A stretch of 57,994 nucleotides of DNA, taken from IMG/VR virus record IMGVR_UViG_3300034190_001214, positions 1 to 57,994 of that record, one strand, 5' to 3'. Shown here piece after piece: positions 43,930 to 53,817 of the stretch. The notes under the pieces are model-generated. The model was not told the DNA's origin. It ran no database searches and saw only the letters and a program-made list of their open reading frames with translations. Made by a program: the position numbers and the translations under genes. The DNA is from a virus (Duplodnaviria; Caudoviricetes). Positions within the stretch are counted from its first letter, which is position 1. Each line of letters begins with the position of its first letter.

Positions 43930-44094
43930 TTATTTATTGTAGTTATTTTCTATTTCTTCTATAGTTCTACCACAACCTTCACAAACATCATTCTCATCTA
44001 ATCTACATTCACCTTGACATTCTATCAGTAGTGAATCAAAGTCTGAATTGTCTGTTGGTTGGGGTTCATCATATGTTTCAAAGTTTACACTCAT
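43930..44094 (-). CDS. DUF1289-like small Cys-rich protein (54 aa)
   Basis: Hand-translated ...ECQGECRLDENDVCEGCGRTIEEI; upstream AGGAG. Confidence 0.65.
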   Translation of the reverse strand: MSVNFETYDEPQPTDNSDFDSLLIECQGECRLDENDVCEGCGRTIEEIENNYNK

Positions 44095-44177
44095 TTACTC
44101 AACTCCTAATACTCGTATTTATACTTCTGTTAAAATCTTTATTTTTATATATATTACTGTGTTCGTTACAGAGGATG

Positions 44178-44185
44178 TATAAATA
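44178..44185 (+). promoter_or_regulatory. Late promoter TATAAATA for the + strand two-gene cassette
   Basis: Exact consensus; GGAG RBS before ATG 44217. Confidence 0.75.
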
Positions 44186-44216
44186 TACTTTAAAGAGATA
44201 CTAATTGGAGTAATCA

Positions 44217-44567
44217 ATGTCAACATATTCAACGATAAAGAACACATCCTTTGATGTTATTAGACCACCAGATTATGATAACAAAGCGACAAGAAGCGCA
44301 GCAACAGATTATCAGGCCAGTGAAAATGGATACTTACTAGTGCTTTGGAATGGTAGTTATAGAAATGGTGGTCAAATCTTTTTAGGCCCAAACACAAGTA
44401 GTTATACATCATTTCATGCGAATGGTAATGATTACAATAACAACTCATGGTATGCAGCAGGTATGGTAGTTGTTCCAAATGGTTACTATTATAAATTTAC
44501 TGTCGATGGTGTATTTTCAGAAGGATGGGAAAGTGTTACTGCATATTGGATACCAGAAGCGTCTTAG
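44217..44567 (+). CDS. Putative fibre-tip protein
   Basis: MSTYSTIK start; TDYQASENGYL...VPNGYYYK beta-rich tip-like pattern; followed by a chaperone-like gene. Confidence 0.55.
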   Translation: MSTYSTIKNTSFDVIRPPDYDNKATRSAATDYQASENGYLLVLWNGSYRNGGQIFLGPNTSSYTSFHANGNDYNNNSWYAAGMVVVPNGYYYKFTVDGVFSEGWESVTAYWIPEAS

Positions 44568-44576
44568 GAGATATTT

Positions 44577-44894
44577 ATGTTATTAAATCAAAATACATTA
44601 CACATTACAGCTATATTGGAATTAGCACCAAATTCAAAATTTCGTTTTGAAAATGGAAATGGTTATGATAATTTAGTGTGGTTAGAAGAAGATGAATCAA
44701 ACAAACCTACTGAAAGCGCTTTTGATAGTAAATTATCAGAACTACAAACAAGATATATCTCTGATGAATATCAAAGAAATCGTGTGACTGAATATCCAAC
44801 TATTGAAGAACAACTAGATAAAATATATCATGAAGGTATTGACGCTTGGAAAGCGACAATCAAAGCGGTAAAGGATAAATATCCAAAACCTTAA
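44577..44894 (+). CDS. Putative fibre chaperone (XkdW-like)
   Basis: AILEL.P, KPTE, YQRNR..EYP.IEEQLD.IYH...WK..IKAVKDKYPKP; paralog of 48636-48953. Confidence 0.65.
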   Translation: MLLNQNTLHITAILELAPNSKFRFENGNGYDNLVWLEEDESNKPTESAFDSKLSELQTRYISDEYQRNRVTEYPTIEEQLDKIYHEGIDAWKATIKAVKDKYPKP

Positions 44895-44896
44895 AT

Positions 44897-44923
44897 AAAA
44901 AAAAAGGAGTGTAAAAACACTCC
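44897..44923 (-). terminator. Rho-independent terminator closing the minus-strand structured RNA (may be bidirectional)
   Basis: GGAGTGT-N4-ACACTCC stem followed by U9 on the minus strand. Confidence 0.8.
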
Positions 44924-45047
44924 CTCTTAATTCTATCTTAAAACAAGTCTGGTGAAAAGAGAATTTTGTCTCTTTCTCCATGATTGTCTTTGATAGTTTC
45001 TTAATGCGTGTAACATTGTCATTGACCTACACCTCTCAAATTAGATG

Positions 45048-45147
45048 TATCTTTTAACGCATGACCTATGCGAGTCTTTTAATCCATGACTTATGGAACA
45101 CTTTTAACCCATGTGATATGGGAGTCTTTTTAACCATGACTTATGGT
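45048..45147 (-). repeat. 4 x 25-nt tandem repeat with palindromic cores NNCAT-N5-ATGNN
   Basis: Cores start at 45058, 45083, 45108, 45133: cgcat-gacct-atgcg, tccat-gactt-atgga, cccat-gtgat-atggg, accat-gactt-atggt. Confidence 0.9.
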
Positions 45148-45153
45148 CAGTAG

Positions 45154-45603
45154 TTATTTATCTCTTTTGCGCCTTTGGTCAGTATCATCTTCCCAGTCAT
45201 CCCAGTCATCATCTTCATCATCATCTTCATCATCATCTTCATCATCTTCATCCCAGTTATCATTTTCGGCGTAGACATCACAAGTACAGGAATCTTCATC
45301 ACAATCTTTATCACATTCATCATCATCTTCATCATCATTCCAACCTTCATCCTCTTCCCACTCATCTTCATCTTCATCTACATCACAGGTACAAGAATCT
45401 TCATCACAATCTTCTTCACATTCTTCATTATCCCAACCATAATCTTTGGTCTTTGTACAACAATGCGAACAGTCACAATCATCACATTTCTTAGGCATAT
45501 CTTCATATAAATCACTTATCTGTTCAGATAATTCTTCAATACTACCATCGATATCATCTAATCGATTAAGTATCTCTTCTAGTCTTTCCATTGGATTAGC
45601 CAT
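45154..45603 (-). CDS. Hyper-acidic protein with N-terminal coiled coil and Cys clusters
   Basis: LEEILNRLDDIDGSIEELSEQISDL heptads; CDDCDCSHCC; two EC..DCDEDSCTCDV repeats; D/E/W tail ending QRRKRDK; AGGGGG RBS. Confidence 0.7.
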   Translation of the reverse strand: MANPMERLEEILNRLDDIDGSIEELSEQISDLYEDMPKKCDDCDCSHCCTKTKDYGWDNEECEEDCDEDSCTCDVDEDEDEWEEDEGWNDDEDDDECDKDCDEDSCTCDVYAENDNWDEDDEDDDEDDDEDDDWDDWEDDTDQRRKRDK

Positions 45604-45644
45604 TGTAAATTCCCCCTTTCAGTAGTATATTAGTATTTATTTTA

Positions 45645-47933
45645 TTAAACAACTTTACTCACAAATCTTTTTAAGAACACTCTTGAATTACTTCTCGAAT
45701 CTCTGTTTTTTGAAAACGCCTTAACCAAATCTTTTCTACTGGCGCCAACTAACTCATCATCTAACATATCATTATCTAACTCCAAACCAGCGCCGCCAGG
45801 TAGAATGTAATAGTCATCAAAGTTAAAGACATTCCCACAAGATAAAAACTTTTCTTTATTTGTTTTCTTTACCAACTTTTTACCCTCAACACTATCCCAG
45901 AAGTGCCAACCATCAAAATCGATATTGTATTCTTTCGCGATAGGTTTATTATAATGACTAAACTCCGAAAAACTTTTGGAAGTCAGAATTCCTTTTTTAG
46001 TAGTCTGTAAAAGATGTAGACCAATAAAAGATTGTGAAATATTTGACTTATGAAACTTAACAAGTTCACTTGTCAAAGTCTCACTATCATAATCATATTG
46101 TGTCGATGAAGAGTCAATCTTAAATTCTTTGTTACCTAATTTGAAAGTAGTACAATAAGGAATCTCATTTCTATTAAAAGTAAAAGCAGAACAAGTTTTC
46201 TGTTTCCAATGTCCTTCCTCATCTTTTGATTCCATATATCTAGTAGCGGCGTTACCAAGACCATCTGTCAAAATGATTGTATTTAATTTTTCAACATTAT
46301 GTTTTGTCATGAAATTTTTAGAAATTCTATCATGAACAACAAGAGTACCAATCAGTGGTGTAGACTGCATATCTAATTTAGTGGCGACCATTCTAAAATT
46401 TAGATAACCAGGAAAAAGCTCAGTCCAACTTCTCAACATTTTTAATGCGATACCAAACCAAAAACATAAACTATCATCAAGTTTTTTTGAGTTCATTTTT
46501 GAACTGGCGATTTCAAATAATCCAAGATTTCCAATAAACATATCATTTTCTTTATATTTAAAAGAAGATTCATTTCTGTTAAGAACCTCAGTATCAGTAT
46601 CATAATAACGATTACTTGAATTATGTTTACTCTCAGATGAAAACGCATACACTTCAAAAGGAACATTAATTCTATTCGCAAACCATACAAGATTTAATAT
46701 TTGTTTCATTGTCGGAAGAATGTTTGTATACATAGAACCAGACCAATCAACATACATGATAAATCCATGATTTTTACCATTTGGTAAGACAGTTACCTTT
46801 TTGAATAAGTCATCATCAAATTTATATCTGTGAAGTGAGTTAACATCAAGAGAACCACTTTTTGAAGTAGCGGCTCTTGAATAAAGAGAAGCACTCTTTT
46901 TCATTTCAAATTCTTTTACCAGATAATTAATAGTAGAAGATGATTCTTTTTTGAAATCCATGAAATATTTTCTTAACCCATCTTGATATATTGTCTTTTT
47001 CTCATCAGTCGTTGAGTTATGTTTTGTATCAAAGTCATCTTGAATTTTTTGACATTCCTCAAAAGACCAAATAATATCTTTAAGGTCATAATCTGGAAAA
47101 CTCACATAATCCATCTCACCATTCAAATCACTTTTTTCAGATAAATTCTTTTCTAAGTTTTTATCAGTAATAGATTCTGAAGAATAATCAGTATCCCAAT
47201 CATCACTTTTTTTACTTGAATCTGAATCACCTTTCTCATCAGAATCACTTTCAGAATCTTCTGACCCACTTTGAGAATCTTCTTTCTCATCAGAATCACT
47301 TTCAGAATCTTCTGACTCACTTTCAGAATCTTCTGACTCAGTTAAGTCATCATTCTGTTTAACTGATTGACCTTGTGACTCTTTGTTGTCTTCCATGAAA
47401 TCAGCGATGTCTTTTGATAACTCTAAAACATCTTGATAGGTAGAACATTTAGAGAGTCTATCGTGAACCCAAGACTCAGAATCTAAGAATGGAATATCAA
47501 TACCAGTTTTATAAAAGATATTGATTCTATCAATAAGACCAAGTTCGGAAAGGTCTTTATCTTTAATACCAAAAATATCTTTCTCAACTAAATCGACATA
47601 TGCGTTTTTGAAAAGTCTAACCAAACCAGGATATCTGGATTGAATCATTTTTTCAATTCTCACATCTTCAACAACATTGATAAAAGATTTAGGAATCTTT
47701 CTTTCTCTACCCTCTTCAAGTAACTCAATAGGAGTATAAAGGGCGTGACCTACTTCGTGACCAATTAACATATCAAGAGTATCGGGAGTCATATCTTTCC
47801 AATCTGGTAAAGATAACTCTCTATTCTTAATATCAAAACTGGCGGTAGGAACTTTCTTAACATGAACTGAAATATCTTCAGTCGCGAGTAGTTTCGCTAA
47901 CGATGTCTTTTTTTGTCTATTATCATTTTTCAT
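45645..47933 (-). CDS. Metallopeptidase-VWA protein (CobT-like; usual partner of a MoxR-type AAA+ ATPase)
   Basis: LAKLLATEDI, GHEVGHAL (HExxH), NVVEDVRIE, acidic linker, MIDAS DWSGS, ILTDG. Confidence 0.85.
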   Translation of the reverse strand: MKNDNRQKKTSLAKLLATEDISVHVKKVPTASFDIKNRELSLPDWKDMTPDTLDMLIGHEVGHALYTPIELLEEGRERKIPKSFINVVEDVRIEKMIQSRYPGLVRLFKNAYVDLVEKDIFGIKDKDLSELGLIDRINIFYKTGIDIPFLDSESWVHDRLSKCSTYQDVLELSKDIADFMEDNKESQGQSVKQNDDLTESEDSESESEDSESDSDEKEDSQSGSEDSESDSDEKGDSDSSKKSDDWDTDYSSESITDKNLEKNLSEKSDLNGEMDYVSFPDYDLKDIIWSFEECQKIQDDFDTKHNSTTDEKKTIYQDGLRKYFMDFKKESSSTINYLVKEFEMKKSASLYSRAATSKSGSLDVNSLHRYKFDDDLFKKVTVLPNGKNHGFIMYVDWSGSMYTNILPTMKQILNLVWFANRINVPFEVYAFSSESKHNSSNRYYDTDTEVLNRNESSFKYKENDMFIGNLGLFEIASSKMNSKKLDDSLCFWFGIALKMLRSWTELFPGYLNFRMVATKLDMQSTPLIGTLVVHDRISKNFMTKHNVEKLNTIILTDGLGNAATRYMESKDEEGHWKQKTCSAFTFNRNEIPYCTTFKLGNKEFKIDSSSTQYDYDSETLTSELVKFHKSNISQSFIGLHLLQTTKKGILTSKSFSEFSHYNKPIAKEYNIDFDGWHFWDSVEGKKLVKKTNKEKFLSCGNVFNFDDYYILPGGAGLELDNDMLDDELVGASRKDLVKAFSKNRDSRSNSRVFLKRFVSKVV
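47221..47340 (-). repeat. Low-complexity tandem repeats encoding the SESEDSESDSDEK linker
   Basis: Repeated tcactttcagaatcttctgac units. Confidence 0.7.
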
Positions 47934-51861: not shown

Positions 51862-53817
51862 CTATACCTCTGTATATCTCCATCCATTAGTTGAGTTATA
51901 ATAAACTAATGAAAATGCTGCACTGTCTGTACTCACTGTTAAGTCTTCTGCGTTTCCATTTATTTTTTGACTGTTTCTTCCAACAGTAATATTATTTGTT
52001 CCCGAATTTCCAGCCGCGTCAATAAGTCTTACTTCATCTCCAAGACTTGGGGATGCAGGAAGAGTTATCGTGACTGCTGCGCTTGATACATCAATTAAAT
52101 ATGCGCCACCTGCGACTGCGGTAAAATCTGAAGTTTTATTTTCCCAAGCTCTTCTTGCGAACAACTCACTTTTATCTATTTTCGCATATCCTATCGCATT
52201 ATCTGATACAGAACCAACAGTTGTTTGAAGTCCTAAGTGTAACGCACGAAGGGTTGAATCTGTCGCTGGTGCGGCAGACATAGTAAGTGTTGTTCCACTT
52301 ACACTATACGCACTAACTGGTTGAACGATACCATCAACTGTAACTAATATTGCGTTTGTATTTGGTGGTATCTGTGAAAGAGTAAATGCGGTTGTTGAAT
52401 TATCTCCAGTAAATTTATCTTCTGTAAATGTTTTTAATCCAGTAGCAAGTTTATTTGATGTTACCGCTCCATCTGTTATACTCGCAGATGAACCCGTAAA
52501 TCCTAAATGTAAAACTCTAATTGCTGCGTTGAGTGGTGGTGCGGTTGTAAATGTTAAAGTTGTTGAACTAACACTATAGTTTCCTGCAGGTTGAATAACA
52601 CCAGAGACACTAACTAAAATTGAAGTATCACTTGGGGGTGCGACAGACAGAGTAAATGTTGTGTCAGAACCATCTCCTGTAAATGTGTCTTCTGTAAATG
52701 TTTTTAATCCACTATCAAGTTTCGCACTTGTAACAGAACCATCAGAGATACTACTCACAGAAGCGGTAAATCCTAAATGTAAAACTCTAATCGCGACATT
52801 ATTGGGTGGTGCGGTTGTAAATGTTAATGTAGTAGAACTAACACTATAGTTTCCTGCAGGTTGAGATACACCATCTAAAAATACCATTATTGAAGTATCA
52901 CTTGGTGGTGCGACTGATAAAGTAAATGTTGTATCAGAACCATCCCCTGTAAAAGTATCCTCTGTAAAAGATTTTAAACCAGTATCAAGTTTTGCGGCTG
53001 TAACTGTACCATCACCTGGTGTTCCTATATCTTGAGTATCAATAGCGATAATATAATCAATCACATCATCTGAAGAAAGTGATTCAGTAAATGTAATTGT
53101 TGAACCAGATATACTGTATGCGTCTACAGGTGCCTGTGTAACACCATTAACACTTACGATTGTACCATTTGTAGTTGCGCTTGTAAACGCAGATGAACTA
53201 ACATTTAAAGTATATGCGGTACTACCATCAGTAGTAATCGCATCCATTTTTGTAAAACTACTAGTTACAGAAGCGAATGATAATGCTGCACTTCCATCTG
53301 TTTTTAAAAACTGTCCTGCACTTCCATCTGAGTTTGGAAATGATAAACCATCTAAAACGACATTACCACTACCATTTGGAGTGATTGTAATATTACCATT
53401 GGCCCCATCCAGTATTGATATAGTACCAGAATTAGTTCCATTATTTGTATTAAGAATTAAGTCGCCTGTACCTTGTGTGGTTATAGTTGCGTTCGCATTG
53501 TTATCACCAACTTGAACTGTATCAGCGCCAAGATTTATATCCCCTGTTCCGTTTGGAATAATATCAATATCTGCGTTTGATGTTGATACTATATCATTAC
53601 CATTTAAATCTAAATTTCCACCAAGTTGAGGAGATGTATCATCTACAACATCACCAATACCACTTGCGTTCGCAAGTTCAACGATACTATCATCAGATTT
53701 ACGAATAAAGATTTTTTGGTCGGTAATATTTACCGCTATTTCACCAACTTCAATATCACTTGTGCCTGGTGTGGAACTAGAGGTTTCACTTCTTTTTGGT
53801 TTTATTCTAACGCCCAT
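51862..53817 (-). CDS. Tail fibre with tandem ~85-90-aa beta-domain repeats
   Basis: N-terminal IKPKRS..GEIAVN domain, DTSPQLGGNLD, three near-identical FTED.FTGD...TFTLS..PP...RVLHLG repeats plus one diverged copy, shared C-terminal domain. Confidence 0.8.
   Translation of the reverse strand: MGVRIKPKRSETSSSTPGTSDIEVGEIAVNITDQKIFIRKSDDSIVELANASGIGDVVDDTSPQLGGNLDLNGNDIVSTSNADIDIIPNGTGDINLGADTVQVGDNNANATITTQGTGDLILNTNNGTNSGTISILDGANGNITITPNGSGNVVLDGLSFPNSDGSAGQFLKTDGSAALSFASVTSSFTKMDAITTDGSTAYTLNVSSSAFTSATTNGTIVSVNGVTQAPVDAYSISGSTITFTESLSSDDVIDYIIAIDTQDIGTPGDGTVTAAKLDTGLKSFTEDTFTGDGSDTTFTLSVAPPSDTSIMVFLDGVSQPAGNYSVSSTTLTFTTAPPNNVAIRVLHLGFTASVSSISDGSVTSAKLDSGLKTFTEDTFTGDGSDTTFTLSVAPPSDTSILVSVSGVIQPAGNYSVSSTTLTFTTAPPLNAAIRVLHLGFTGSSASITDGAVTSNKLATGLKTFTEDKFTGDNSTTAFTLSQIPPNTNAILVTVDGIVQPVSAYSVSGTTLTMSAAPATDSTLRALHLGLQTTVGSVSDNAIGYAKIDKSELFARRAWENKTSDFTAVAGGAYLIDVSSAAVTITLPASPSLGDEVRLIDAAGNSGTNNITVGRNSQKINGNAEDLTVSTDSAAFSLVYYNSTNGWRYTEV

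Follow-up and report, generated by a model that had tools for sequence, protein, structure and literature searches.

The window analyzed here is the whole 57,994-nucleotide DNA of IMG/VR virus record IMGVR_UViG_3300034190_001214 (Caudoviricetes). Its minus strand carries, at positions 45048-45147, an array of four 25-nucleotide (nt) units with the pairing pattern of compact H-type RNA pseudoknots. The array would be the phage copy of a leader motif that precedes gltB (glutamate synthase), an operon of a porin gene and amtB (ammonium transport), a gene for a short glutamine synthetase, and the gene for a small cellular protein in SAR86 and a second uncultured marine lineage. SAR86 is among the most abundant groups of marine heterotrophs and is essentially uncultured; its regulation is therefore known almost only from sequence. 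In the window, the proposed unit would run from a late-promoter-like box through four stacked 25-nt pseudoknots to a hairpin that sequesters the Shine-Dalgarno (SD) sequence, a 29-codon gene and a terminator. The identity of the array as a structured leader RNA on the sense strand can be stated with far more confidence than the mechanism by which it acts; for the latter, the evidence leans modestly towards a host-derived translational switch tied to nitrogen status. The leader RNA motif is apparently undescribed.

The array was first recognized in an initial annotation of the window, and direct reading of the sequence shows four head-to-tail 25-nt units on the minus strand exactly as that annotation had described. 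Tandem Repeats Finder reported the interval 45050-45146 with a period of 25, 3.9 copies, 73% matches and a score of 110. When the complete 57,994-base record was searched with a pattern describing the unit, four matches were obtained on the reverse strand and none on the forward strand, and a backwards-read version of the same pattern, used as a control, gave no match on either strand (0 and 0). The general unit consists of a first stem (S1) of 5 base pairs (bp), a first loop (L1) of 1 nt, a second stem (S2) of 4 bp (or 3), no second loop (L2), and an A-rich third loop (L3) of 6 nt, the last four bases of which are A nearly throughout the aligned units, part of L3 being fixed by the pattern. 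In the window, all five S1 pairs are formed in each of the four units and S2 comprises 4, 3, 4 and 3 pairs, as follows:

45123-45147, minus strand: pseudoknot unit 1; S1 of 5 bp, L1 a single A, S2 of 4 bp (AGUC:GACU), L3 of 6 nt.
45098-45122, minus strand: pseudoknot unit 2; S1 of 5 bp, S2 of 3 bp (CAC:GUG).
45073-45097, minus strand: pseudoknot unit 3; S1 of 5 bp, S2 of 4 bp; the same as unit 3 of cellular arrays that precede the small-protein gene, for example L132.
45048-45072, minus strand: pseudoknot unit 4; S1 of 5 bp, a weak S2 of 3 bp, the 3' strand of which (GAUA) enters the SD-sequestering hairpin.

The units abut without a linker, an arrangement that would allow each S2 to stack on the S1 that follows it. 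Such abutment is an unusual build for 25-nt pseudoknots, which could in this way form a quasi-continuous stacked rod.

The pairing was tested on 68 distinct units taken from the approximately 160 arrays (2-4 units each) described below. These were aligned without gaps, with the register set only by the core fixed in the search patterns, and the pseudoknot was scored with two bracket types over 612 pair cells. Two loci of the alignment designated A3 were dropped from its successor A4: L107, a probable chance match, and L072:3050-3074, which is off register owing to a 5-nt L3. The arrays at L051 and L117 are cut by the contig end. Standard pairs occupied 95.1% of the 612 cells, compared with 71.3% (standard deviation 1.1) in shuffled alignments, and the covariation score was 0.594 compared with 0.129; none of 500 shuffles reached either observed value. 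When the partners were slid by one to three columns as a control, pairing fell to only 26-37%.

The search patterns had fixed S1 pairs 3-5 (the top three), the junction C:G pair and part of L3, and the four fixed pairs are therefore uninformative. The five pairs that were left unconstrained each show three to five pair types, with 18 and 25 double changes at the two free S1 pairs and 28, 34 and 36 at the three free S2 pairs. Eighteen different S2 4-mers occur among the 68 units, each with a complementary partner, and the second units of L019 and L021 provide a clean double swap (AGAC:GUCU versus AGUC:GACU). Pairing of S2 within its own unit was 98.7% and 93.5%, compared with 55-60% when the loop of the neighboring unit was taken as the partner. 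The cells are not independent events, as the units share descent, but the assignment is secure nonetheless because so many distinct helices are represented. The alignment thus bears out the initial annotation in its central claim, an H-type pseudoknot with covariation in both stems.

The covariation also bears on whether the repeats act in DNA rather than in RNA. Each unit contains a perfect short palindrome (CAT-N5-ATG) at a regular 25-bp spacing, as might be expected of operators or iterons for a DNA-binding protein. However, a DNA-level function leaves unexplained the covariation of the hairpin loop with the four bases that follow the A-rich stretch, the fixed orientation to the downstream gene in all of the approximately 160 arrays, and the location of the arrays between promoters and ribosome-binding sites; we regard it as scarcely credible. 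The choice of the minus strand as the sense strand, also made in the initial annotation, agrees with the gene orientation and the A-rich L3, on which it mainly depends. That annotation had further stated that no reading frame stays open across the repeats. This holds for the minus strand, where stops occur in all three frames within the array, but not for the plus strand, where a 30-codon open reading frame (ORF; 45061-45153) crosses most of it. The plus-strand ORF was not treated as a gene because the CAT/ATG palindromes explain it.

Arrays were sought with pattern and covariance-model searches in viral, metagenomic and genomic sequences. Two pattern scans of viral contigs returned 24 loci, comprising 20 arrays and four chance matches without arrays (L010, L016, L020 and L022); the metagenome pattern scan returned 99 loci and the genome scan 42. 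The total is approximately 160 arrays of two, three or four canonical units, of which about 40 are distinct. The 42 genome loci are mostly in metagenome-assembled and single-amplified genomes labeled SAR86, and a covariance model of two units (S1 only) detected arrays in 39 of the 151 genomes of the SAR86 order (the order of genome G001). A close relative of the window phage, with 84% identity in the neighboring 762-amino-acid (aa) protein, carries an identical array. A blastn search of positions 44577-45700 against 50,697 phage records matched only part of a neighboring 105-aa gene.

The genes that follow the arrays carry the link to nitrogen. Among the 20 viral arrays, 19 are followed by an SD sequence and a 29-36-codon ORF of a single peptide family, and the remaining one is cut off. 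The 97 metagenome arrays stand before the peptide gene (53), gltB (20) or a glutamine riboswitch (17), with six cut off and one probable chance match. The 42 genome arrays lead gltB in 17 cases, a glutamine riboswitch and a porin-like gene in 15, and a gene for a 46-67-aa protein in eight; the other two are cut off. Every array with enough downstream sequence, save one probable chance match, therefore leads either a nitrogen-assimilation gene or the peptide gene. A gltB-type array is followed by a GATase_2 match (1.1e-96), and the glutamine synthetase found after arrays carries Gln-synt_N and Gln-synt_C. Where the glutamine riboswitch RF01739 directly follows, it scores 57-66 bits, and the next matches are Gcw_chp (2e-19) and then Ammonium_transp (2.4e-87). 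A gap of 8-12 nt separates the array from the downstream RF01739 in the amtB and glutamine-synthetase leaders. Among the covariance-model matches, the four weakest stand before a 326-aa glutamine synthetase and combine one or two divergent units with one or two glutamine riboswitches. Together these genes outline a post-transcriptional nitrogen regulon in SAR86, made up of amtB, glutamine synthetase, glutamate synthase and a small protein.

Two further features were seen at such cellular leaders. At L223 and L224 (G069:C1:210100-210900 and G065:C22:6700-7500, both of the SAR86 order), one or two divergent units are followed by two tandem glutamine-riboswitch-like sequences. At L135, L161 and L114, an inverted repeat (TGCAC, 6 nt, GGTGCA) lies 40-70 nt upstream of gltB-type arrays; it resembles the enterobacterial NtrC-binding consensus, and gltB-type leaders of this kind may also sit behind nitrogen-regulated promoters.

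The glutamine riboswitches themselves were considered as a possible identity for the array and rejected: neither the glnA RNA (RF01739) nor the Downstream-peptide motif (RF01704) model matched it at E-values up to 10. The RF01739 model does work in this material, as its matches beside the SAR86 arrays show. Excerpts of two sources describe a regulon of ammonium transport, glutamine synthetase and glutamate synthase for these riboswitches (PMC2864571) and place them before short ORFs for small basic proteins, IF17-like with DUF4278 in cyanobacteria (PMC6212724). The regulon theme and the ORF for a small basic protein are thus common to both, whereas sequence and fold are unlike those of the array, and the peptide that follows the array lacks DUF4278. 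No description of the array was found in the literature searched, although the supplements of PMC2864571 and PMC6212724 could mention the flanks of glnA RNA; in the part of PMC12379486 that was available, RF01739 is reported beside a porin in SAR86 and the array is not mentioned.

The 40 distinct peptides encoded downstream of the arrays all share one core motif, are rich in Arg and Lys, and form a family so restricted that a profile search of 1.84 billion representatives recovered only 12 clusters, all from the same small family. Twenty-four members gave no Pfam match (one match, at 0.16, was noise), PHROGs and PADLOC gave none, and a search of the ESM Atlas with the peptide gave no usable match. 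The small ORF of the window, which the initial annotation does not mention, differs from that of L007 at four residues (R to K, Q to H, S to M and R to K), the array being identical; it evolves as a coding sequence, as the substitutions are in-frame and mostly conservative. In alignments, the phage peptides correspond to the last 30 residues of the 46-67-aa cellular proteins, the window peptide being 48% identical to that of L145 over the C-terminal stretch. AlphaFold2, given a 24-row alignment, predicted a disordered N-terminus and a single helix at residues 30-66 with a predicted local distance difference test score of 92-97. On this model, essentially nothing of the cellular protein beyond this C-terminal helix is present in the phage form.

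It is conceivable that the knots are operators to which the basic helical peptide, or another RNA-binding protein, binds cooperatively and thereby regulates its own synthesis, the phage peptide being a minimal form that also acts on host leaders. Cooperative binding of a protein would be in keeping with small, repeated units of conserved shape; the peptide is Arg/Lys-rich, with one long helix predicted, and its gene always carries an array. The peptide profile was found in all five genomes of the second marine lineage, which served as the positive control, and each of these five has exactly two array loci, at the peptide gene and at gltB, as would fit a regulator and its target. However, the same profile found no peptide in any of the 151 SAR86-order genomes, 39 of which carry arrays. 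The arrays thus work without the peptide in SAR86, and on gene content the peptide cannot be their general trans-acting factor; a different protein partner is possible. There is also a precedent for caution, as the small repetitive motif mini-ykkC was first guessed to bind protein and was later shown to bind a small molecule. This replacement of the protein-binding guess, the wording of which appears in an excerpt of PMC2864571, likewise counts against the operator, which we consider unlikely.

A complex between the peptide and glutamine synthetase, after the manner of IF7/IF17, was also modeled with two lineage-A copies of type I glutamine synthetase and residues 30-67; the prediction gave no answer and is evidence neither way. 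In three genomes of the second lineage (G152-G154; loci L225-L227), a type I glutamine synthetase gene stands directly after a PII (glnB-like) gene.

The four S1 words of the window match those of the cellular peptide-gene arrays position by position, unit 3 being identical. From this correspondence we infer that the whole cassette probably moved from host to phage, losing the N-terminal half of the protein on the way; the direction is suggested by the wider use of the motif in cells. The phage settings vary. The window array follows an acidic ORF, a third group has its array after another Cys-rich ORF, and two groups have it after the terminator that ends a major head protein gene, beside an HNH endonuclease gene. 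Phages of at least three genomic contexts therefore carry a host-type leader with a truncated host small protein, an auxiliary gene that would be regulatory and not enzymatic.

In some of these phages a second structured element was noticed. A conserved, three-stem, RNA-like element at L019:4020-4090 (minus strand) has similar counterparts in L021, L026, L015, L014 and L036 and a two-stem counterpart in L009. It sits between the stop codon of the peptide gene and the next gene, which encodes an HNH/NUMOD4-type endonuclease, and shows compensatory stem variation around a constant core of CGAAG and a hairpin with a GAGA loop. It had no Rfam match, a scan around the L019 cassette at E-values up to 10 returning only noise. 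The element may regulate the endonuclease gene, and the endonuclease may help to move the cassette between phages.

The proposal of a translational switch draws on the folding of the leaders. The features of the window leader, in the direction of transcription, are:

45155-45162, minus strand: late-promoter-like box, GATAAATA; overlaps the stop codon of the upstream acidic ORF.
45028-45049, minus strand: predicted 7-bp hairpin (UACAUCU with AGGUGUA) from minimum-free-energy folds, with a 5' arm that begins within the 3' strand of the unit 4 S2 and a 3' arm over the SD sequence.
45030-45037, minus strand: SD sequence, GAGAGGUG; GAGG core 9 nt before the ATG, a position kept in all peptide leaders.
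44933-45022, minus strand: 29-codon ORF plus stop (codons 45022-44936), encoding a basic peptide predicted to form one amphipathic helix.
44901-44928, minus strand: intrinsic terminator, a 12-pair stem followed by a T run, which ends the leader-peptide unit.

When the segment that starts with the S2 3' strand of the last unit and ends slightly beyond the start codon was folded, a hairpin was obtained in most leaders. In 27 of 31 distinct peptide leaders, at least two of the four bases of the S2 3' strand lie within this hairpin (mean 2.9), whereas substitution of all 256 4-mers for that strand gave a fraction of 0.43 and a mean of 1.46. Bases of the SD core are in the 3' arm of the hairpin in 28 of the 31. 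The arm sequences differ between groups yet stay complementary, and the last unit in the peptide leaders usually has the weakest S2, of 3 bp. The overlap recurs in one class of gltB leader, where the start codon is buried in the hairpin. Phage leaders of the L009 type have the SD sequence immediately next to the last knot, and 6 nt complementary to this SD sequence span the junction of units 1 and 2.

These observations suggest a mechanism in which two structures compete for the same bases. Stacking of S2 on the neighboring S1 in the abutting units would make folding of the array cooperative. While the last unit is folded, its S2 3' strand would be held in the knot; once it is unfolded, those bases would become the foot of the hairpin that buries the SD sequence. 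An effector that reports nitrogen status would stabilize the knots and so turn translation on, and the phage would in this way tie the output of its peptide to the nitrogen state of the host. A small molecule is favored over the peptide itself as the effector. The regulon, together with the presence of a separate glutamine sensor on two of the leader types, points to a metabolite of nitrogen status other than glutamine. Put most specifically, each 25-nt unit might be a natural aptamer within a cooperative riboswitch for a nitrogen signal such as 2-oxoglutarate, glutamate or ammonium, which would form a two-input gate with the glutamine riboswitch on ammonium uptake and assimilation in SAR86 and would have been captured by several marine phage lineages; this is put forward tentatively, as a possibility with the odds against it. 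As a covarying structured element in a 5' leader, the array shows one of the features that define riboswitches in general, the others being an expression platform that excludes the aptamer fold and the direct, selective binding of a metabolite or ion.

Several points weigh against a translational switch, or against parts of the case for it. The main weakness is that the amtB and glutamine-synthetase leaders show no visible overlap between the array and an SD sequestor, and in these leaders the array must therefore act differently or more generally. The other class of gltB leader also lacks a clear sequestor, the overlap between S2 and the hairpin in the window itself is only one or two bases, and the 27 overlaps among 31 leaders are not 27 independent events, as the leaders are related by descent. 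Ligand binding is only proposed, and a 25-nt knot without L2 leaves little room for a binding pocket. Some of the invariance in the alignment, namely that of the positions fixed by the search patterns, is partly by construction. The wobble test for the strand gave 19 G.U cells and 9 A.C cells, which is suggestive and weak. Finally, for transcription, strand and 5' end of the array there are contigs from four RNA libraries (X1-X4, from three studies; 11 of 24 listed runs are on record as RNA). Contigs of X2, X3 and X4 (two studies) cover the array; one of 169 nt spans 44980-45148, ending one base before the array, and another extends upstream to 45199. They amount to a weak hint, since such contigs give no strand, ends or level and may reflect DNA carry-over.

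The position of the arrays at predicted transcript ends bears on a simpler possibility, that the knots sense nothing and serve as a compact, nuclease-resistant 5' cap that protects the mRNA or as a spacer that sets a fixed level of translation. In cellular loci, approximately 6-8 nt separate -10-like boxes from the array, which thus lies at the predicted 5' end of the mRNA; use of the late-like box would give a similar arrangement in the window. The GATAAATA box resembles the T4-type late promoter, and the transcript start predicted from it, at about 45149-45147, falls at the first base of the array. The box is kept in the close relatives L007, L011 and L048, although coding constraint could explain its conservation, and no sigma-70-like site was found upstream of the array on the minus strand. 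RF01739, moreover, already fills the sensing role in the amtB and glutamine-synthetase leaders. Against a constitutive element, two phage groups have the array immediately after the terminator that ends the major head gene, and so it is probably internal to a read-through transcript there. Neither the restriction to nitrogen-assimilation genes nor the recurrent overlap with SD sequestors would be expected of a generic stabilizer, and an element of this kind therefore seems improbable to us.

The initial annotation had suggested instead that the array is a decoy for a host defense RNase, akin to the type III antitoxin RNAs, and this proposal fared poorly. The likeness is formal: ToxI, antiQ and CptI are also tandem knot repeats with A-rich junctions upstream of a protein gene, and the array is found in a phage beside such a gene. 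However, ToxI-like RNAs, which the toxin cleaves at the A-rich junctions into single units, have near-identical repeats of approximately 34-40 nt, whereas the array has a period of 25 nt (not about 35) and 73% matches, and the identities that its differing units do show are specific to position and kept across genomes. Type III antitoxins are followed by an endoribonuclease, and the array by a 29-aa helix or by housekeeping nitrogen genes. No ToxN/AbiQ/CptN gene was found downstream, the 29-codon and neighboring ORFs having no toxin match in Pfam, PHROGs or PADLOC; PADLOC returned no family for five of six neighboring proteins and one weak match (E-value 0.0045) for the 105-aa neighbor. No Rfam antitoxin family matched, and in cells such arrays stand before gltB, amtB and glutamine synthetase genes. 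A pseudo-antitoxin, or a decoy for a host type III toxin or other defense RNase, is consequently very improbable.

The remark of the same annotation that the repeats were not recognized as a described family agrees with the Rfam searches: a scan of positions 44000-46000 with Rfam 15 at E-values up to 10 placed nothing on the array, and scans of the whole window and six related loci at gathering thresholds gave no matches. Comparison with individual systems leads to the same view. The preQ1-I riboswitch is likewise a very small pseudoknot of the H type, in which the first stem has 5 bp, the A-rich 3' loop occupies the minor groove, and the knot controls translation by competing with SD accessibility. 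The array shares the small H-type knot, 5-bp first stem and A-rich 3' loop of preQ1-I-like riboswitches, but its unit is smaller (25 nt), lacks L2 and occurs in two to four abutting copies, and the preQ1-I covariance model (RF00522) did not match at E-values up to 10. Excerpts of PMC6698751 list preQ1-I, SAM-II/V and guanidine-III among the classes that bind ligands through pseudoknots.

The luteovirid -1 frameshift pseudoknots of the beet western yellows virus (BWYV) type have 5 bp in S1, 1-2 nt in L1, 3-4 bp in S2 and 6-7 nt in an A-rich L3. Their geometry is similar to that of the array; however, the array is non-coding, repeated, located in a 5' leader and without a slippery site. A frameshift function, which calls for overlapping reading frames and a slippery heptamer 5-9 nt ahead of the knot, was rejected, with stops in all three sense frames and the array lying between a stop codon and an SD sequence. 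The T4 gene 32 leader, also in a phage, carries at its 5' end a compact H-type knot whose L1 is 1 nt long and which controls translation by nucleating the binding of gp32 to its own mRNA. That knot is single and autoregulatory, whereas the array consists of multiple host-derived units before an unrelated peptide gene. The STAXI motif shares the layout of tandem knots, being described in an excerpt of PMC2864571 (Weinberg et al. 2010) as a pseudoknot in two or three tandem copies, near DNA-manipulating genes and with a suggested function in the form of single-stranded DNA; the array has no Rfam match to STAXI.

Were the units shown to bind a metabolite, the array would be a candidate for a new class of nitrogen-sensing riboswitch, a possibility that is directly testable, and the 25-nt unit would be the smallest known natural aptamer. 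Phage capture of the array together with the helical peptide would then couple a host-reprogramming factor to the nitrogen state of the host.

The surroundings of the array in the window were also recorded. The window carries a T4-type baseplate hub (Gp5_OB, 2.1e-19), and the phage record is incomplete, at an estimated 32% completeness. The array begins 6 nt past the stop codon of the acidic, Cys-rich 149-aa ORF (45154-45603, minus strand) and ends 25 nt before the ATG of the small ORF, which is preceded by a good SD sequence. The 149-aa product, which has no Pfam family, is extremely acidic: D and E form long runs, and Cys pairs recur (CDDCDC, CEEDC, CTCD); in a close relative the N-terminal 82 residues are 83% identical and the acidic repeats are of variable length. 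Upstream of it, the 762-aa protein (45645-47933, minus strand) has a match to phrog_459 ('peptidase', 8.5e-175) and a weak one to a CobT-like cobalamin family, and its gene contains a 51-bp tandem repeat encoding a serine/acidic tract. A 54-aa ORF (43930-44094, minus strand) that adjoins the gp5-like hub gene matches DUF1289 (2.5e-07), a small Cys-cluster protein. A 270-bp tandem repeat of 2.3 copies and 81% identity occupies 52402-53014, probably inside a structural or fiber gene.

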